Origin: a virus
DNA: 64,000 nucleotides
Reading direction: 5' to 3' (one strand)
Virus record (IMG/VR): IMGVR_UViG_3300018080_000129
Location: 1-64,000 of that record
A program made the translations under genes and the position numbers. The notes beneath the pieces are model-generated. The model was not told the origin of the DNA. It saw only the letters and a list, made by a program, of their open reading frames with translations, and ran no database searches. The stretch's first letter is position 1. Each line of letters opens with the position of its first letter. Of this stretch, positions 4,083 through 54,907 are shown piece by piece.

Positions 4083-4199
4083 CTCTGTCCTTTCGGCTGT
4101 CGGCGCGTATCATTGCCGCTCTCGATGTCCCTCAATTCGCGCTTGTACTGTTCATTATATGGCGAATTAGGAAAATTCTCAACCAAAAACTTCAGGAAG

Positions 4200-5596: not shown

Positions 5597-5823
5597 CTCA
5601 CACGTCCTTGTAGTCTGCCGCCAATTTGTGCTCAAGTTCGTAAGGACATCTCTTCGGAAGATAATTGCCATCTTCAGAAAGCCATGCCTTGCCCTCCCCC
5701 ACCAACTTACAAGACCAAACCTTCACAGCCACTCGACCTGTGTTATTGTTCCTCACAACAATGTAAGAACTACACTGTTGACAAACCGCCTTGCTTTTCG
5801 GCATTTCACACGTCCTTGTAGTC
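5594..5823. repeat. 22-bp direct repeat catYtcacacgtccttgtagtc (5594-5615 and 5802-5823)
   Basis: Read directly from the sequence. Confidence 0.85.
5598..5804 (-). CDS. small Cys-containing protein flanked by direct repeats
   Basis: CQQC...C...CPY; ends DYKDV like the upstream ligase. Confidence 0.55.
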   Translation of the reverse strand: MPKSKAVCQQCSSYIVVRNNNTGRVAVKVWSCKLVGEGKAWLSEDGNYLPKRCPYELEHKLAADYKDV

Positions 5824-6906
5824 ACTGTGCTTGCCAAGAGAATACTCAGTGCCGATGTACTTCAGCACCACCCTGCCGATTTTCACATGATTCCTCTCAT
5901 GCACCGGCTTCACAACCACGCCTTCCCGACAATGATTCGCATTCGGCATAATGCTCTGGCCGTCCGCGACCTCATTGATTTTCTCGAAGTAGAACGGCCC
6001 TCGATAAATCACAGGCACCTGCTCAATTCCGAATGCAGTGCAATAGCTGGCAAACCCGTCGTAATCCAGATACTTGCCGTTAATCTTCAGGTCAAAGGCC
6101 CTGTAACCGAATCCTTTGCCTTTCTCGTAGCCGTATCCCAAACTCTGAATGCTCCTGCCATAGACTTCGCCGTAAAGAATAACACTGCGACCGCCTTCGG
6201 CAAGAGTCAGAAGCAAACGTCGAACTTTTTCGATGCTCCAAGGACTCCAGTAAATATCGTGCTTGACCTTGTTGCTGTCCCATTCGCAGGGAATTTCCTT
6301 ATCGACTCCATGTGTGTCGATTTTCTCTCTCGGACGCTGCTTCCGAGTCGTATGAGAACCAGCCACGGGACAGCCATTGATGATGCCAACCCGCGAGTTG
6401 GTGCCATGAATCTTCTCGGTTGCTATGACCTCTTCTCCTTCTTCAAATATATCTATAAACAATTTTCCATTCTCGATGTCGGTGTACTCCTCGAAATATG
6501 GGTCGATGTTCCCGTCATACGCAGCCATGTTCTGAACACCCGGTCGAATCGGAGGCTCATATTTGGTTGCCCCGAAATAGTCCGCAACGTTGTCTCCAAG
6601 CTTCCAATCCTGCCCTTCGGGAATATCCACCACCAGCCCGAATGATGGCTCACCACGCAGCTTGATTTTGCCCACGCGGTCTTTGTTCTTACCCCTGAGA
6701 AAGTTCCTGACCTCGAACTTCTCAGCCCATTCAGCAGGCAGGAGAACGTCAGCGGGAAAATAAACCCCGACATCTCCGTCCTTGTACCTGCCCTTGGGAA
6801 CGCACATCTGATAGCCGAGCACGTCACAGATTTCCAGCTTGTCGGCATTCGGATGTGGCCTTACATTTTTGAGTTCCACAACAGGAACAACACAGCTACT
6901 TGCCAT
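5806..6906 (-). CDS. ATP-dependent RNA ligase (DRB0094/Rnl2-like) with N-terminal OB-type domain
   Basis: N-terminal HPNADKLE, motif I TEKIHGTN, GEVYG, AFD, REGVVVK, VLKYI. Confidence 0.88.
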   Translation of the reverse strand: MASSCVVPVVELKNVRPHPNADKLEICDVLGYQMCVPKGRYKDGDVGVYFPADVLLPAEWAEKFEVRNFLRGKNKDRVGKIKLRGEPSFGLVVDIPEGQDWKLGDNVADYFGATKYEPPIRPGVQNMAAYDGNIDPYFEEYTDIENGKLFIDIFEEGEEVIATEKIHGTNSRVGIINGCPVAGSHTTRKQRPREKIDTHGVDKEIPCEWDSNKVKHDIYWSPWSIEKVRRLLLTLAEGGRSVILYGEVYGRSIQSLGYGYEKGKGFGYRAFDLKINGKYLDYDGFASYCTAFGIEQVPVIYRGPFYFEKINEVADGQSIMPNANHCREGVVVKPVHERNHVKIGRVVLKYIGTEYSLGKHSDYKDV

Positions 6907-20292: not shown

Positions 20293-20420
20293 AATCTTGA
20301 AACCCATTGAGGGCCGGAGTCCCGCACCAGAACACGACTCCGGCCCTCCCGCTATTGCCGGAAGACCGTGCGCCGATTACAGGCGCACATCGTTGCTGAT
20401 TGGGTTTTGTCTCTATTCTT

Positions 20421-20434
20421 TTGTCAAAGAACGA
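20421..20434 (-). promoter_or_regulatory. boxA-like element TCGTTCTTTGACAA
   Basis: Resembles the rrn boxA consensus. Confidence 0.5.
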
Positions 20435-20443
20435 CTTATGAAC

Positions 20444-22033: not shown

Positions 22034-22171
22034 TCCAGTACCGAAAATCGCAGAGAGGACTGTAACGTCGCTCTACCACTAAGCTACCGCCCATCAAAGT
22101 TGGGCGGGTTGGAATCGAACCAACGTCTACGGCTCCCAAAGCGAAGTATCTCTCCACTGGAGCGTACTGGA
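22034..22171 (-). ncRNA. YrlA-like Y RNA (circularly permuted tRNA-mimic module)
   Basis: Closing stem TCCAGTAC/GTACTGGA; internal order is T arm (GTTGG-TTCGATT-CCAAC), loop-closed acceptor stem (CCGCCCA-ACTTTGA-TGGGCGG), D arm (GCTT-AGTGGTA-GAGC). Confidence 0.82.
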
Positions 22172-22711: not shown

Positions 22712-22786
22712 TGGCAGGAGAGCCGGGACTCGAACCCGAATCCAAGGATTTGGAATCCTTGATGCTACCAATTACACCACTCTCCT
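22712..22786 (-). tRNA. tRNA-Trp(CCA), first gene of the array
   Basis: AAGGA-TTCCAAA-TCCTT, CCA. Confidence 0.92.
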
Positions 22787-22827: not shown

Positions 22828-22833
22828 AAATCC

Positions 22834-22863
22834 AAAAAAAAGACCCGAATTTCTTCGGGTCTT
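22834..22863 (-). terminator. intrinsic terminator of the attenuator
   Basis: AAGACCCGAA-GAAA-TTCGGGTCTT followed by a U tract. Confidence 0.9.
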
Positions 22864-22911
22864 CTTCAGGCTTCACTTTGTTTGATTGATGTGTTACCTG
22901 AAGAAAACCCG
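22856..22911 (-). promoter_or_regulatory. antiterminator helix
   Basis: CGGGTTTTCTTCAGG (22897-22911) pairs 15/15 (one G-U) with CCTGAAGAAGACCCG (22856-22870), which overlaps the terminator 5' arm. Confidence 0.85.
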
Positions 22912-23013
22912 CTGACTATCTCCGACTTGATTGGGATACAACGGGAGCAGTGATGGGAAGTGGCGTTCCCACCCGCATCTCGTTGTTTTACCTGCAATCA
23001 TCATCGAAGACAT
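22894..23013 (-). CDS. 39-aa leader peptide containing all 20 amino acids (not in ORF track)
   Basis: MSSMMIAGKTTRCGWERHFPSLLPLYPNQVGDSQRVFFR*; SD GGAG 8 nt upstream; 35 distinct codons. Confidence 0.85.
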   Translation of the reverse strand: MSSMMIAGKTTRCGWERHFPSLLPLYPNQVGDSQRVFFR

Positions 23014-23050
23014 CACGGTTTCTCCAGATAACGTTTCAACTCTCTGCCCT

Positions 23051-23079
23051 ATTATACGGCAATTTCACAAAAAGTTCAA
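23051..23079 (-). promoter_or_regulatory. sigma70 promoter TTGAAC-N17-TATAAT
   Basis: Near-consensus hexamers with a 17-bp spacer. Confidence 0.85.
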
Positions 23080-23107: not shown

Positions 23108-23323
23108 TTACGGCTTACCTACATTGTCGCCCCAATACTGAGGCTTATCACTTGCAGCCTCGACAACGCCACGACGAGTCTTCGTGGGATTCACACCCGA
23201 ACCTGTGGGGTTGCCAACCTTTCTTGTCGTAGCATCTGTCCGCACAGGAATGCAGCTATGGGCGTAGAAAGCCTCCACGTCCTCAATCTGCTTGTCCGTG
23301 CTGTTCGCTCTGTACGTAGGCAT
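23108..23323 (-). CDS. hypothetical protein
   Basis: RBS AAGGAG. Confidence 0.6.
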   Translation of the reverse strand: MPTYRANSTDKQIEDVEAFYAHSCIPVRTDATTRKVGNPTGSGVNPTKTRRGVVEAASDKPQYWGDNVGKP

Positions 23324-23574: not shown

Positions 23575-23605
23575 CTATAACAGGAATATCAAAAAATTGT
23601 TCAAA
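23575..23605 (-). promoter_or_regulatory. repeated AT-rich (late-type) promoter motif
   Basis: ACAATTTTTTGATATT-N-TTATA. Confidence 0.55.
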
Positions 23606-24434
23606 GTAGACCCTTCTCGAAACAGGAATCAACATTGACATTGAATTTGCTGTGCTCCTTATCCCTCAACTCGACCTCTGTGTAAAAATCCTCAGCTTCC
23701 GGCGTTTCCTTGTATCCCTTGCCCCCACACTTCTTCCCTGCGTTCTTACCTGTCGTGAACTCAATGACGTTGTTCCCCTCATAACCATGCAGAACGCTGT
23801 CCTGATTGTATTTTTTCCCCATCTCTGCCAGCTTCTTGTGCATGTCCTTTCTTTGGTTCTTCTTGTAGCGAACCATGAATCCCTTTTGAGACTTTTTCAT
23901 CTTCTTGGGAAGCTCAAGGTCGTCATGGACAACTAAAAAGCTCGGCTCTTTTCCTCCATAATGGCCGACTACCTGAGTATAAGGCACTCCAAGGGATTCC
24001 AGTTCATCCTGCAACTGTTCATGTCGCTTGTGAAAGAACTCGTCATCCGGCTCCTTCTCCGCTTCTTCAGGGTTGTTCGGATTTCTACCAGCCGAGATGA
24101 CCGTGTATTGGCCTTTCTTCAGAGTATCCTGCAACTCCTGCTTGGTCATCCGAACGTGATTCTTGTATTCCTTCTTTTTCGGAGCTTCTTCAAGCTTCTT
24201 TTTCTTGACCTTCTCTTTAAGCTTTTGCTTGACTGTATGCTTGATGTGCTCCTTGACGACTTCTGCATGTTCTTCAGGAGTGTCAGGATGAATCGTATGA
24301 CGCTTTGGATTTGCCGCTGGATGCTCTTGCTTGTACTGTTTCCACTCCGTCAGACTCATCTCGAAAGCAAGAATTTCCGAGAATGCCACGCGCATGGCGA
24401 TGCGGCGAATATCGGATTTTGCGTATCGAGACAC
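23601..24434 (-). CDS. SAM lyase (T3 SAMase)-like domain protein with an N-terminal extension
   Basis: YTVISAGR...RH..L...GHY..KEPSFLVV...YNQDSVL matches the motif order I recall for T3 SAMase/DUF3293. Confidence 0.6.
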   Translation of the reverse strand: MSRYAKSDIRRIAMRVAFSEILAFEMSLTEWKQYKQEHPAANPKRHTIHPDTPEEHAEVVKEHIKHTVKQKLKEKVKKKKLEEAPKKKEYKNHVRMTKQELQDTLKKGQYTVISAGRNPNNPEEAEKEPDDEFFHKRHEQLQDELESLGVPYTQVVGHYGGKEPSFLVVHDDLELPKKMKKSQKGFMVRYKKNQRKDMHKKLAEMGKKYNQDSVLHGYEGNNVIEFTTGKNAGKKCGGKGYKETPEAEDFYTEVELRDKEHSKFNVNVDSCFEKGLL

Positions 24435-24446
24435 ATCATTCCCTTT

Positions 24447-25202
24447 CTACAGTCTCAGCGTATAACCCTTAACAAAAATCGAGCATCGACAATCTGAATC
24501 GCCCGTATAATAATAGACACGCATGGTGCTGTCATAAAACATTCCAATGTCCGCTTCATTCGTTTGTCGGAACCTATACCACCATGAACCAGCATAAAGA
24601 CCAGCCCTTGTGTAATGATATGTACTGCCGCTCAACCCTTCAAGATAGACTGCACTGTTACCGAAATCATTGTTCCAATTCGACATGAACAAAAGCCGAG
24701 CAGACTGACCATACGTATCAGGAACATAGTTGCTTATATCAATCTGAGTTCGACTTGTACTCCCGCCGCCAGAAAGAACCGTTTGAGGGCCGGGATAAAA
24801 CACTCGACAATTATACTGCTTGAAGTTCAAAAAATCAGCCGTAAAATAACGCAGCACACTTACAAGCCGCTTTTTCGTATATCCTGAAGGCATCGTGGGA
24901 GCAGTATCACTCAAAGAGAAAAGTCCAGCAACCGTTCCACTCGTTGGGTTCAGAATCAAGAATAAGTAATACCAAGTATCATTGCTGACTGAACCTGTAT
25001 CCAATCCGTTTGCGCCATTGCCTGAAATGTCCACATCAATGTTCGATGTGACTTCCATCAAAGCTTCGCCGTCATCCGTTCCCACAATACCTTCCGTGAT
25101 TCGAACAACATCCGTACTCAGATATTCTATACCAAGACGGTCTAACTTCCTCTTGGTGAGAAGCTGCTTGATGCGTTTAATGTCAACGGCTAACTCTGCC
25201 AT
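24447..25202 (-). CDS. fibre-tip/receptor-binding domain paralog 4
   Basis: GANGLDTGS...TWYY...VAGLFS...PTMPSGYTKKR. Confidence 0.75.
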   Translation of the reverse strand: MAELAVDIKRIKQLLTKRKLDRLGIEYLSTDVVRITEGIVGTDDGEALMEVTSNIDVDISGNGANGLDTGSVSNDTWYYLFLILNPTSGTVAGLFSLSDTAPTMPSGYTKKRLVSVLRYFTADFLNFKQYNCRVFYPGPQTVLSGGGSTSRTQIDISNYVPDTYGQSARLLFMSNWNNDFGNSAVYLEGLSGSTYHYTRAGLYAGSWWYRFRQTNEADIGMFYDSTMRVYYYTGDSDCRCSIFVKGYTLRL

Positions 25203-25954
25203 TATAACCTCAATCGAAAAGCCTGAATCAGAGCATCACAATCCACTTCTGAATCAGACACGTAGTAATAAATCCGTGCTGTCGAATAGTAATTTGGCAT
25301 CCATGCGCTTTGAGTACCACGTTCCATGAAAGACATTGGAGTTGCTACGTTGTCATAAGAAGCATACATCAGCATGTAACCGCTTCCACTTTCACACTCA
25401 ATTTGCGCATTGCCTGTTCCATGAAAGCTTGATGAAGTAGCATTGGCAAAAACCTGAAAAGCTTCAGCATGTTCATCAGGAACATAATTCGAACAACTGA
25501 TTTGAACACGGCTTGTTGAACTTCCATTACTCAAAACGCCAATATAGCCAGCATAATGGATTTCTTCATTCCATTGCGTAAAAGCAAGCAAAGCCGTTGT
25601 TCTTCTTGTTGCGCCTATCCATCTTTTCTTCGTATAACCAGAAGGCATTGTTGGGCTGCTTTGACTCGTCGAAAGCAATCCTGCAACCGTATTAGTAGTC
25701 GGGTTGAAAATCAGAAACAGATAATACCAAGTATTGTCCGCTGGAGAACCTGTGTCCAATCCGTTTGCGCCTGAAGAAGTGATGTCTACATTCAAAGTAG
25801 ACGTAACTTCCATCACTACATCGCCCTCGTCGGAACCCACAATGCCTGAATAGATGCTGACAACACTTCCATCCGTGCTTTTGACACGAAGGCTGTTGAC
25901 TTTCTCCAGCAAAGCAGACTGAATTCGTTCTGTAAGTACGACTGTCTCAGCCAT
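25202..25954 (-). CDS. fibre-tip domain paralog 3
   Basis: Same shared core. Confidence 0.75.
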   Translation of the reverse strand: MAETVVLTERIQSALLEKVNSLRVKSTDGSVVSIYSGIVGSDEGDVVMEVTSTLNVDITSSGANGLDTGSPADNTWYYLFLIFNPTTNTVAGLLSTSQSSPTMPSGYTKKRWIGATRRTTALLAFTQWNEEIHYAGYIGVLSNGSSTSRVQISCSNYVPDEHAEAFQVFANATSSSFHGTGNAQIECESGSGYMLMYASYDNVATPMSFMERGTQSAWMPNYYSTARIYYYVSDSEVDCDALIQAFRLRL

Positions 25955-26712
25955 TACAAACCCTTCAACTTGTATCCTGTAACGTAGATAGTGCTATCTG
26001 CACCACTGCCGCTATGATAGTAATAAAGCCGTGTTGGACTCGTATAATACATTGGCAATTCAAAATGACACTCTTGACGATACAGATAAACCGTAGTGGC
26101 TGTTTCGTCATTGCCCATATAAGCCCACTGATTGGTAGTTCCACTCAGTCCTTCAACATAACCTGTTCGACTCGCTTCAATATCTGAACCAGTAGATTCC
26201 AGCCGCCATCGAATGTCCGCACTGAAAGCTTCATCGGGAACATAATTACTCAGATTGATTTGTGTTCTTGATGTTGCACTTCCTGCTGAAAGAACCGTGT
26301 AATTTTGAGCAATATTCACATAGTTATTGTACTGCCGAAAGTATGGAAAAGCAGCAGTGTAATAGCGCAACTTGCTCACTGCTCGTTTCTTGACATATCC
26401 ACTCGGCATTGTTGGATTCGAAGCACTGAGCGAAAACAATCCTGCAACTGTTGTGTAGTTGCTGATGACGTAAAGATAGTACCAAGTGTCGTTGCTTACT
26501 GAACCTGTATCCAGACCATTCAAGCCTGAGTTTGTAATATCAACGGTTATTGTTGAAGGAATCTCCATGATTTCATCGCCGTCGTCAGAACCAACAACAC
26601 CATCACGGAGATAGACAACGCTGGTTCCGTTGCAATCGGCACGAAAACTCTGGAGCATTGTTTTGGTCAACAACGGGTCAATGCGTCCAGCTTTGATTTC
26701 GGTTTCAGGCAT
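25954..26712 (-). CDS. fibre-tip domain paralog 2
   Basis: Same shared core. Confidence 0.75.
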   Translation of the reverse strand: MPETEIKAGRIDPLLTKTMLQSFRADCNGTSVVYLRDGVVGSDDGDEIMEIPSTITVDITNSGLNGLDTGSVSNDTWYYLYVISNYTTVAGLFSLSASNPTMPSGYVKKRAVSKLRYYTAAFPYFRQYNNYVNIAQNYTVLSAGSATSRTQINLSNYVPDEAFSADIRWRLESTGSDIEASRTGYVEGLSGTTNQWAYMGNDETATTVYLYRQECHFELPMYYTSPTRLYYYHSGSGADSTIYVTGYKLKGL

Positions 26713-26723
26713 TTATAATCTCT

Positions 26724-27479
26724 TTACAAATTCAAACAAAAACCGTTCACACCAATATAACAAGATTGACCACTAAATTCGACACTGTAATAGAAACGAA
26801 TTGGCGAAACTGTGAAAATAGGCGCACTAAATTGCATTGCCGAATCTGCTATGTATGATGCAGTATAATGCGAACTCATCGCTGTCCAGAGATTTGTTCC
26901 ATCTGTGGAAAAAAGTACATTGCCACGCCCACCTATATTACTCTGAGGAATATCAATAAGGTTGACAGAACCAAAATCTGCAATAGGAGGTACGTAATTC
27001 GAAAAATCCACAGAAGCATAAGAAGTAGACGTTCCATTCGACAGAACAAGTTTGCGTAGCAAGTAGGAATAATCGTTATTGATTTGTTTGAAAGAATAAA
27101 AATCACTACTACCATCATTTCTTACTGCGCCCACAAGACGCTTCTTTGTGTAACCTGAAGGCATTGTAGGACTGCTACTGGAAGTCGAAAACAATCCTGC
27201 TGTAGTTCCAGTCGTAGGATTGAAAATTAGATAGATGTAATACCACGTATTGGCAGCTTCACTTCCAGTATCCAGACCATTTGCTCCGCTTGCTGTAATA
27301 TCTACCGTAATGGGCGACGAAACTTCCATCAGTCTGGAGCCATCATCGGCACCTGCAATGCCGCTATTGATGTCCACCTGATAAGTCGGATTGCTTGCGT
27401 TGCTTTGGATTTCCAGATACTCCAAGTGCCTCTTTATCGCCAGCGTGGTAAGCTGAGTCGCATTTAGCGTCGTGACCAT
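26724..27479 (-). CDS. fibre-tip domain paralog 1
   Basis: Same shared core. Confidence 0.75.
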   Translation of the reverse strand: MVTTLNATQLTTLAIKRHLEYLEIQSNASNPTYQVDINSGIAGADDGSRLMEVSSPITVDITASGANGLDTGSEAANTWYYIYLIFNPTTGTTAGLFSTSSSSPTMPSGYTKKRLVGAVRNDGSSDFYSFKQINNDYSYLLRKLVLSNGTSTSYASVDFSNYVPPIADFGSVNLIDIPQSNIGGRGNVLFSTDGTNLWTAMSSHYTASYIADSAMQFSAPIFTVSPIRFYYSVEFSGQSCYIGVNGFCLNL

Positions 27480-43452: not shown

Positions 43453-43481
43453 ATTATACTCTGAAACCATAGAAAAGTCAA
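43453..43481 (-). promoter_or_regulatory. sigma70 promoter TTGACT-N17-TATAAT
   Basis: Near-consensus promoter upstream of the fusion gene. Confidence 0.85.
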
Positions 43482-43539: not shown

Positions 43540-43577
43540 AAAAAAAGAACTCCCCAAGATTTCTCTTGAGGAGTTCT
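43540..43577 (-). terminator. intrinsic terminator after the major capsid gene
   Basis: AGAACTCCTCAAGA-GAAA-TCTTGGGGAGTTCT followed by a U tract. Confidence 0.88.
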
Positions 43578-43632
43578 AAACTGACGTGAGCTTCTGCTCT
43601 ACAAAGCTTAGTTATTACTCGTCATAAGTATC

Positions 43633-44487
43633 TTATACGCGAGTAATTACAAGTCTCTGAAGAGCGTATGGGTTGTACGCCCCAATCCCAAGATTCTCAA
43701 AGATTGAGAACCCGATGAGACGGTTTTTCGGGTCATCCGCAGACAGAACCGTAAGCTCGGTTCTGACAGGAATGCGTCCGAAGAATTCCGGCTCACCGCA
43801 GACGTACACGGTTCCCTCAGTGACGATACGCGAAACAATGAGCTTCGCGCCCCACAGAGTTGCCATCAAGCCAGTTTTCAGCAAGCTGGCCTGCGTCTCG
43901 ATGTCCAAGGTATCTCTGTCCCACTTACGCAGGTCAGCATAGTCCTTGGCATTCATAAAGACGTTGGCGACTCTCATGTCAGTGCGCTCGACGTTCGCGA
44001 AAGCGTCGGCCAGCGCATTGGCCGTGAGGTTGCCCGTTACCGGAATGTCGGGATTCGGGTTAGTGGGGTCAGCCGCCAGTGCATCCATGACGGCAAAAAC
44101 CTTGCGGTCTTCTTCAGCCTGAATTTCGCTCTTAGCAAGGTCAACGCTTCTCTCGATGAGGTCGAACCGACGAGCCTTGATTTCCGTCAACTGGATTTCA
44201 GGGTTCGAGGCAACTTCAAAGAGCGGGAACAGAACTCTCTTTGGCTTTGCGACTGCGACAATGTTTTCACCCTCTTCACCGACCACATAGGCCGTGATGT
44301 TCGGGTCTTTGTCGTAAATCGGCAGTGCGCCATCGGGAAGCTGTTCGACGTAGAACGCTTTGCGTCCTACGGAAGTGTAGTCCCTGCGCCGACGCAAAGG
44401 CTGAATCATGGAGGCCGCAAGACGCTGCCTACCAGCGGCAGTCTTGATGAACTGACTGATAATCTCCTGCTTCGTCTGATTATCCAT
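43633..44487 (-). CDS. major capsid protein (HK97-like fold)
   Basis: Position after scaffold and decoration genes, strong RBS and terminator, motifs IQAEEDRKVF, VFMNAKDYADL, LWGAKLIVSRIV. Confidence 0.82.
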   Translation of the reverse strand: MDNQTKQEIISQFIKTAAGRQRLAASMIQPLRRRRDYTSVGRKAFYVEQLPDGALPIYDKDPNITAYVVGEEGENIVAVAKPKRVLFPLFEVASNPEIQLTEIKARRFDLIERSVDLAKSEIQAEEDRKVFAVMDALAADPTNPNPDIPVTGNLTANALADAFANVERTDMRVANVFMNAKDYADLRKWDRDTLDIETQASLLKTGLMATLWGAKLIVSRIVTEGTVYVCGEPEFFGRIPVRTELTVLSADDPKNRLIGFSIFENLGIGAYNPYALQRLVITRV

Positions 44488-54535: not shown

Positions 54536-54783
54536 TCCTCAAACGCCTCCAAAGCCTTGGCTACGTCTGCGATGTAAGGAGCAATTGCTGTCTCCATCAA
54601 ATCCTTGACTTTTTCCAAGGCCTGCTTCTCCAATTCGTTTTCCGGCTTGACAAGAGACAGAGACTCATCAATCGCCAAAACAGATGCGATGATGTTATCG
54701 ACCGCTTCATCGACAATCACAAGCGGTTCTTTCTCCTCCTGCGCCAGTTCCGTCGCAATTTTCTCGGCATTATCTGCATCCAT
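54532..54783 (-). CDS. acidic helical hypothetical protein
   Basis: ORF after a promoter motif. Confidence 0.65.
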   Translation of the reverse strand: MDADNAEKIATELAQEEKEPLVIVDEAVDNIIASVLAIDESLSLVKPENELEKQALEKVKDLMETAIAPYIADVAKALEAFEE

Positions 54784-54816
54784 AATATTCCCTTTCGTAG
54801 ACTTTCAAGAGCCTAC

Positions 54817-54847
54817 AATATAATGGGAATATAAAAGAATTATCACA
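54817..54847 (-). promoter_or_regulatory. repeated AT-rich (late-type) promoter motif
   Basis: GATAATTCTTTTATATT-N-ATTATA. Confidence 0.6.
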
Positions 54848-54874
54848 AAAAAAGCCCTTGCAAAAGCAAGGGCT
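54847..54874 (-). terminator. intrinsic terminator
   Basis: AGCCCTTGC-TTTT-GCAAGGGCT followed by a U tract. Confidence 0.85.
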
Positions 54875-54907
54875 ACCGACAAACGACTACACCCGCAACA
54901 CGAGGGG

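Follow-up and report, generated by a model that had tools for sequence, protein, structure and literature searches.

Does a short open reading frame (ORF), set between a promoter and a terminator, decide whether the transfer RNA (tRNA) array behind it is transcribed? The locus that raises this question occupies positions 22834-23079 (minus strand) of the first 64 kb of the 103.5-kb IMG/VR virus contig IMGVR_UViG_3300018080_000129; "the window" below means those 64,000 nucleotides (nt). The source is a divergent giant phage from sediment, its giant-phage origin following from the record's estimate that the contig is about 31% complete. The minus strand carries all genes, with a structural module (terminase, portal, tail, and fibre genes) followed by a block of tRNA genes, and the locus stands exactly at the junction of the two. 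A first-pass annotation, made from the sequence alone, had proposed here an attenuator whose leader peptide contains every amino acid and controls the tRNA array. We put it at about even odds (a probability of roughly 0.5) that the locus is a leader-peptide transcription attenuator that serves as a general gauge of decoding and gates the phage tRNA operon.

The linear anatomy of such an attenuator is present. A sigma-70-type promoter, TTGAAC-N17-TATAAT (23051-23079, minus), agrees with the consensus at 10 of 12 positions and has an A/T-rich stretch upstream; from its position, the transcription start is placed near 23044. The element GGAG-N8-ATG follows 32 nt past that inferred start, with the Shine-Dalgarno sequence GGAG at 23025-23022 (minus), 8 nt before the ATG at 23013. 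The leader ORF (22894-23013, minus) is predicted to be coding and comprises 39 sense codons and a TAA stop (22896-22894), giving the peptide MSSMMIAGKTTRCGWERHFPSLLPLYPNQVGDSQRVFFR. Beyond it is an intrinsic terminator (22833-22867, minus) with a GC-rich stem of 14 pairs, AAGACCCGAA / TTCGGGTCTT (22867-22836), a GAAA loop, and 8 U, and about 50 nt further on begins tRNA-Trp(CCA) (22712-22786, minus; ARAGORN and Rfam tRNA), the first gene of the array. The promoter, Shine-Dalgarno sequence, start codon, 39-codon frame, and terminator that the first-pass annotation had named are all found in the minus-strand sequence, and the order and spacing of promoter, ribosome-binding site (RBS), ORF, stop codon, antiterminator, terminator, and tRNA fit an attenuator.

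Within the window the array consists of 29 tRNA genes (478-22786, all minus; ARAGORN) with interspersed ORFs, represents 28 different anticodons, and is cut off by the contig end. No minus-strand terminator of comparable strength was found between 1 and 22800, the 23-kb tRNA block, and the sole strong promoter-like site inside the block is at 4182 (11 of 12 matches); the leader unit is therefore placed to gate the array. A strict search of the 103.5-kb contig for TTGA[AC][ACT]-N16-18-TATAAT returned eight sites, every one of them minus-strand, at contig positions 100648, 92018, 77456, 75313, 66976, 43481, 29679, and 23079, the last being that of the leader. Most of them have A/T-rich upstream DNA and lie ahead of genes or RNA units, several directly after intrinsic terminators, and one (29679) is inside a large ORF. 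The eight sites suggest that units transcribed by the host polymerase may be found throughout the contig. No second copy of the leader element was found in the contig.

Folding of the RNA revealed a feature that the first-pass annotation had overlooked. From the inferred start to the terminator, the 218-nt transcript folds with -90.6 kcal/mol (z-score -7.5) into a long hairpin followed by the terminator hairpin. The long, imperfect hairpin (22885-23040, minus) has 62 pairs, eight of them G-U, and a folding energy of -68.2 kcal/mol (z-score -7.0), and it contains the RBS, the start codon, the entire ORF, and the stop codon. The plus strand folds 19 kcal/mol worse (-71.3 vs -90.6 kcal/mol), and the eight G-U pairs together with this asymmetry mark the hairpin as an RNA feature of the transcribed strand rather than a DNA palindrome. 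A DNA cruciform, a replication origin, and a mobile element were considered and rejected: the long hairpin needs its G-U pairs and was unreported by a DNA inverted-repeat search. The locus ranks third in structure among 2,584 minus-strand windows of the contig. The other two most structured 160-nt windows are at 43540-43700 and 54740-54900 (minus; residual z-scores of -4.5 and -3.9, respectively), the former just upstream of the promoter at 43481 and with inverted repeats at 43546-43577 and 43596-43665.

Three segments of the transcript, together with the 3' arm of the terminator (region 4), have alternative partners. Region 1, CTGGAGAAACCG (23016-23027, minus), holds the Shine-Dalgarno GGAG and pairs with region 2 in the finished transcript; region 2, CGGGTTTTCTTCAGG (22897-22911, minus), is formed by the last five sense codons and pairs with either region 1 or region 3; and region 3, CCTGAAGAAGACCCG (22856-22870, minus), supplies the 3' strand of the antiterminator and shares bases with the terminator's 5' arm. 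The 15/15 pairing that had been claimed between regions 2 and 3 (22911-22897 with 22870-22856) is borne out, with one G-U pair. The basal helix of the long hairpin is the 1:2 pairing, and the layout is that of the full 1:2, 2:3, and 3:4 set of a classical attenuator. The proposed attenuator geometry is real and fuller than had been claimed, region 1 being the RBS segment, whereas the proposed sensing of every codon stands only in part, as described below.

In the full transcript the 1:2 helix has a probability of 0.94, and the RBS and AUG are buried in the finished, terminated RNA; in a transcript cut before the 3' arm of the terminator, the 2:3 helix forms. The antiterminator duplex has an energy of -27.1 kcal/mol, against -10.9 +/- 2.2 kcal/mol for 300 shuffled terminator arms, none of which did as well (0/300). 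The same duplex test was unremarkable (-8.1 vs -10.1 +/- 2.2 kcal/mol) for another promoter-RNA-terminator unit of this phage, which precedes a Ro60 gene. As the leader unit is extreme and the Ro60-side unit ordinary, the cross-pairing is specific to the leader unit. Regions 1 and 3, and likewise regions 2 and 4, are alike at about 11 of 14-15 positions, and the cross-pairing could have arisen from a duplicated terminator stem. An apical stem-loop, GCGGGTGGGAA / TTCCCAT (22953-22976, minus), was noted in the first-pass annotation as a mid-leader hairpin and occurs in every fold; a role as a pause hairpin is conceivable.

The effect of a ribosome on these pairings was modelled by masking a 28-nt footprint and folding the transcript cut just before the 3' arm of the terminator (the decision-point model). 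This model replaced an equilibrium footprint model of the complete transcript, which was rejected as it wrongly gives constant termination for Escherichia coli trpL. On E. coli trpL, the decision-point model gave an antiterminator probability that peaked at 0.73 with the ribosome at Trp codons 10-11 and never exceeded 0.38 elsewhere. For the phage leader, the probability was 0.89-1.00 with codons 1-30 in the P site and 0.99 with no ribosome; it fell from 0.70 to 0.12 across codons 31-34 and was 0 from codon 35 to the stop. The logic put forward earlier, in which an early stall gives readthrough and arrival at the stop gives termination, is thus reproduced by a model validated on trpL. The terminator stem begins 27 nt past the stop codon, so a ribosome terminating there masks region 2 and not the terminator. 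Forced-pair energies favour the antiterminator over the 1:2 helix by 8-21 kcal/mol with the ribosome at codons 1-10 and by about 15 kcal/mol at codons 28-30.

The codon content of the leader is also unusual. On recount, the 39 codons are of 35 different kinds and specify every one of the 20 amino acids, and codons 5-36 are free of repeats, as had been counted before. There is no run of any codon, and each of the 20 amino acids occurs at most four times. Repeated amino acids with several codon choices take a new codon every time (Ser 4/4, Arg 4/4, and Gly, Pro, and Leu 3/3), which by our own arithmetic has a probability of about 0.002 under uniform synonymous choice. For a stretch of 39 codons, having 20 amino acids together with 35 or more distinct codons was rare under every null model run, a comparison that the first-pass annotation had suggested: P = 9.5e-5 for uniform codons, P = 5.5e-5 when the nucleotide composition set the codon frequencies, 0/200,000 draws with the codon usage of this phage's genes, and 13/47,288 (2.7e-4) in shuffles that preserved the hairpin and its pair types and left the frame open. 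The frame was open in 11.8% of the structure-preserving shuffles.

Among the 171 ORFs of 35-45 codons in the six frames of the window, the leader is the sole one with either property, and both properties occur together in 5 of 43,206 stop-free windows of 39 codons, all five inside the leader ORF. The other two frames of the leader are fairly diverse too (32 and 31 distinct triplets), partly because the base composition is even. Another stop-free stretch of 39 codons with 35 distinct codons and fewer than 20 amino acids lies at 20327-20443 (minus), between an 84-amino-acid (aa) ORF and tRNA-Ala, where no ORF of at least 30 aa with a start codon is listed.

From these parts we infer that the ORF is translated and that the timing of translation makes the locus respond to tRNA shortage, as follows. 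Host RNA polymerase would start from the promoter at 23079, and a ribosome would load at GGAG-N8-AUG before the 3' half of the hairpin exists. A ribosome that had come to about codon 35 or to the stop while regions 3 and 4 were being transcribed would cover region 2, and the terminator would form. Termination would release an RNA of roughly 205 nt that refolds with its RBS and AUG buried, so that, in this proposal, each transcript would be read only once. With a ribosome that lags or has stalled earlier, regions 2 and 3 would pair, no terminator would form, and transcription would proceed through tRNA-Trp to the array genes behind it. With 20 amino acids and 35 different codons among its 39, the leader would gauge decoding in general rather than the supply of one amino acid.

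A bolder version, held tentatively and with the odds against it, would make the leader a purpose-built test strip for the whole tRNA pool: any shortage or cleavage of host tRNAs, for example by the anticodon nucleases of defence systems, would delay the first ribosome and switch on the operon of replacement tRNAs, and the hairpin would re-bury the RBS so that each transcript gives one reading. Phage tRNAs have been tied to escape from host defences that cut tRNAs (PMC10264068, PMC11555353).

Several observations weigh against an attenuator that gauges decoding or set it apart from classical ones. The cluster of regulatory codons for one amino acid that is found in a classical attenuator is missing, so the leader would be a variant and not a classical member of the class. 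An ORF buried in a 62-bp, -68 kcal/mol hairpin is atypical of known attenuators and resembles a structured small RNA, and the GGAG of the leader is weaker than the AAGGAGG-type RBSs of the phage's clear genes. The codon diversity statistic was picked post hoc, and its window-corrected value is roughly 0.02-0.1.

The energies are also uneven along the ORF. With the ribosome at codons 12-25, or with none, the 2:3 helix is favoured over 1:2 by only 5 kcal/mol, and this margin shrinks to about 0 when the polymerase still encloses the last 8 nt. As the 1:2 helix is made before region 3, stalls in the middle of the ORF and untranslated transcripts may terminate. The earlier claim that a stall at any codon before the end gives readthrough is upheld by the decision-point model for codons 1-30, but uniform sensitivity is not, given the thin margin at codons 12-25.

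Nor does the leader track the codons that the array can serve. Of the 61 sense codons, 43 can be read by the 28 anticodons in the window; for the leader the figure is 28 of its 39 codons where 27.8 are expected (P = 0.55), which is chance level. The leader samples 25 of the 28 anticodons (P = 0.004), mostly as a consequence of how varied its codons are (P = 0.05 once 35 or more distinct codons are required). The visible array lacks tRNAs for Thr, Cys, Ser-TCN, Arg-AGR, Arg-CGG, and Val-GTY codons; since the array is cut by the contig end, tRNAs for these codons may lie beyond it.

Comparative evidence is a further weakness. No relative with the leader locus was found in viral, metagenome, or protein collections or in sequencing runs, and the locus is represented by a single sequence. 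Among the sequencing runs, the matches were to DNA in the probable source sample only, with no RNA run among them, and the contigs of that sample show no variants at the locus. The 40-aa leader peptide has no homologue among 5.8 billion proteins, where the 71-aa neighbour finds only itself. In viral contigs the flanking 108-aa protein matched one locus, which is not syntenic, and the 277-aa neighbour matched none. A portal search gave one contig (G001, 65% identity) with differently arranged tRNAs and no match to the leader, and exact patterns from the terminator and tRNA-Trp had no matches.

One syntenic relative was found, the metagenome contig L015, which has homologues of both flanking genes (34% identity for the 71-aa gene, pairwise E = 8e-7; 71% for the Cys-rich 108-aa gene). 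Between these homologues L015 has a plain hairpin and two inserted ORFs, without leader and without tRNA. The joint absence of leader and tRNA is consistent with the two forming one unit, as a single data point. L015 also carries a transfer-messenger RNA (tmRNA) at L015:1541-1897 (ARAGORN, tag ANAPVRMAA).

Much of this evidence could be read instead as that of a stand-alone, non-coding structured RNA of about 205 nt, made of the long and terminator hairpins and transcribed from its own promoter, which might bind a protein, act as a decoy, or serve RNase III as a substrate; the array would then be expressed by leakage through the terminator or from other promoters, and both the ORF and the diversity of its codons would have arisen as by-products. 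In favour of this reading, the hairpin is both strand-specific and exceptional (z-scores -7.0 to -7.5, eight G-U pairs, among the contig's three most structured 160-nt windows), the ORF has no gene call in the protein collection and no homologue, and an open frame arises in 12% of structure-preserving shuffles. The design already exists in this phage, a further point against the attenuator: on the Ro60 side (L020:11700-13456, contig 75700-77456, minus), the strong promoter at 77456 leads into a structured, ORF-free RNA of about 190 nt, a terminator (GGGAAGC...GTTTCCC and 9 T), and, 45 nt on, the Ro60/TROVE gene (Pfam TROVE, E = 7e-25; Ro60 vWA, E = 1e-6). That unit probably joins a phage Y RNA to the gene for its Ro60 partner, which leaky termination would allow to be transcribed.

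A Y RNA (YrlA/Yrn) was considered at the leader locus as well and rejected: there is no Rfam YrlA match there, and the Rsr-binding motif GNCGAA (PMC4201824) is missing from the RNA. Scans of 15 kb and of 301 nt against Rfam returned at the locus only sub-threshold look-alikes of the terminator (rimP, AgvB, Thr_leader, and Phe_leader), which likewise speaks against the non-coding reading. A non-coding RNA would also need four coincidences, namely that GGAG-N8-AUG falls at the hairpin's 5' base and a stop codon at its 3' base, that a 15-bp antiterminator overlaps the terminator arm (0/300), and that the codon set has a P of about 3e-4, and we regard this explanation as unlikely. Elsewhere, at 22044-22145 (minus), between the 71-aa ORF and tRNA-Glu, Rfam YrlA gives a weak match that falls short of the gathering score (31.3 bits, E = 0.0019); a separate entry of the first-pass annotation on Y-RNA-like units agrees with this match and with the Ro60 gene, but the match is weak.

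The terminator might also be controlled by a factor to which the ORF is irrelevant, either an RNA or a protein of phage or host that binds the long hairpin and tips the balance between 1:2 and 2:3, in the style of TRAP, PyrR, or ribosomal-protein leaders, or an antiterminator like lambda Q or N that carries polymerase past the terminator. In the PR' - 6S RNA - tR' region of lambda, a strong promoter gives a terminated transcript of about 200 nt, and a long operon is expressed when the terminator is passed; the leader unit has this same late-operon layout. Without a ribosome, 1:2 and 2:3 are within 0-5 kcal/mol, so that a modest ligand could decide between them, and the long hairpin offers a large binding surface. 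Lambda Q is a polymerase-modifying protein and works without a leader ORF or antiterminator helix, whereas the phage unit has an ORF-linked antiterminator helix for which a Q- or N-type mechanism has no need. No antiterminator protein or binding motif was identified, although no search aimed at a Q-like gene was made, and the placement of RBS, ORF, and stop codon exactly over regions 1 and 2 would go unexplained, as would the codon diversity; such a switch seems to us rather improbable.

A T-box riboswitch was rejected, with no Rfam match at E up to 10 in the 301-nt region; the string GGGUGGGAACGCC, which resembles the T-box core, sits at the hairpin apex, outside the antiterminator.

It is more doubtful still that the locus has no dedicated function, the terminator simply ending the upstream late (tail-fibre) operon with the hairpin as a 3' stabiliser, and the promoter-like site, ORF, and cross-pairing arising by chance or as remnants of a duplicated stem. 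Between the locus and the 71-aa gene upstream of it (stop at 23108) there is no terminator, the likeness of regions 1 and 3 and of regions 2 and 4 may reflect such a duplication, and the homologous gene in L015 is followed by nothing more than a simple hairpin. Against this stand the membership of the promoter in a strand-restricted family, the high joint improbability of the ORF features and codon set, and a hairpin far larger than a terminator or stabiliser requires.

If the locus is an attenuator, its closest known counterparts are those of amino-acid operons, E. coli trpL, hisL, pheL, and leuL and the multivalent thrL and ilvL. These likewise have a promoter-proximal short ORF with an RBS, 1:2, 2:3, and 3:4 helices, and an intrinsic terminator, and in them, as by modelling in the phage, a ribosome at the end of the leader brings termination and a lagging ribosome readthrough. 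They differ in using runs of one regulatory codon, whereas the phage leader has 20 amino acids and 35 codons, and in being shorter than its 39 codons. Region 1 comprises their control codons but is the RBS segment in the phage, their stop codon stands before region 2 and that of the phage after it, and they do not have, as the phage does, an ORF wholly within a 62-bp hairpin. The controlled genes are biosynthetic enzymes in the one case and tRNAs in the other, and the Rfam Thr_leader and Phe_leader models scored far below threshold at the phage locus and matched the terminator only.

Bacillus subtilis bmrB-bmrCD (PMC4191407), the mycobacterial whiB7 upstream ORF (uORF) (PMC10274678), and E. 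coli toiL (PMC12121999) also have a short leader ORF at which general impairment of translation slows the ribosome and turns on the downstream genes. They control bacterial drug-resistance or stress genes, respond to antibiotics or a particular amino acid, and are not known to contain the full set of amino acids. The trn operon of Anabaena (PMC8421152, PMC10272220) is a silent array of 26 spare tRNA genes that is induced under translational stress, as proposed for the phage; it is bacterial and, unlike the phage leader, controlled by the transcriptional repressor TrcR (PMC10272220), and the texts of the two papers do not mention a leader, attenuation, a terminator, or a uORF. Full-text literature searches found no published account of leader-peptide control of tRNA genes. 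In Vibrio phage pv27, the tRNA array is headed by a 53-aa ORF with a terminator behind it, and an antiterminator is not evident.

Other features of the phage concern RNA and translation. An RNA ligase gene lies inside the tRNA array (5806-6906, minus; Pfam RNA_ligase, E = 2e-24; PHROG RNA ligase, E = 5e-47), and the phage has a tmRNA at L021:12660-13015 (contig 96660-97015, minus; Rfam RF00023, 88.4 bits, E = 4e-33). Together with Ro60, these point to a phage equipped to repair RNA and to rescue translation. A tRNA-Met outside the main array (L021:7198-7274) lies about 720 nt behind a strong promoter (L021:7990-8018), with a long untranslated stretch between them that contains a weak tRNA-like Rfam match (L021:7595-7664). 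This stretch and the RNA preceding the Ro60 gene have in common the motif (G/T)ATACGCTCCAG..AGT.G..ATACTTC.

Just upstream of the leader locus, the 277-aa protein (23601-24434, minus) has a match to the S-adenosylmethionine lyase family PF23780 (E = 5e-6; 26.9 bits vs a cut-off of 28); this agrees with a separate entry of the first-pass annotation, but the score is below the cut-off. Four tandem ORFs of 250-252 aa each (24447-27479, minus) adjoin a 910-aa fibre-like protein and look like paralogous fibre or receptor-binding cassettes.

Why phages carry large sets of tRNA genes, and how these are controlled, is a long-standing question. If the attenuator reading is correct, this locus would provide a direct and testable link between the state of the host's tRNAs and the phage's own tRNA supply, and it would extend trp-type attenuation from one amino acid to all of them. 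The enclosure of a whole ORF and its RBS within one hairpin would add an anatomical novelty to that mechanism.

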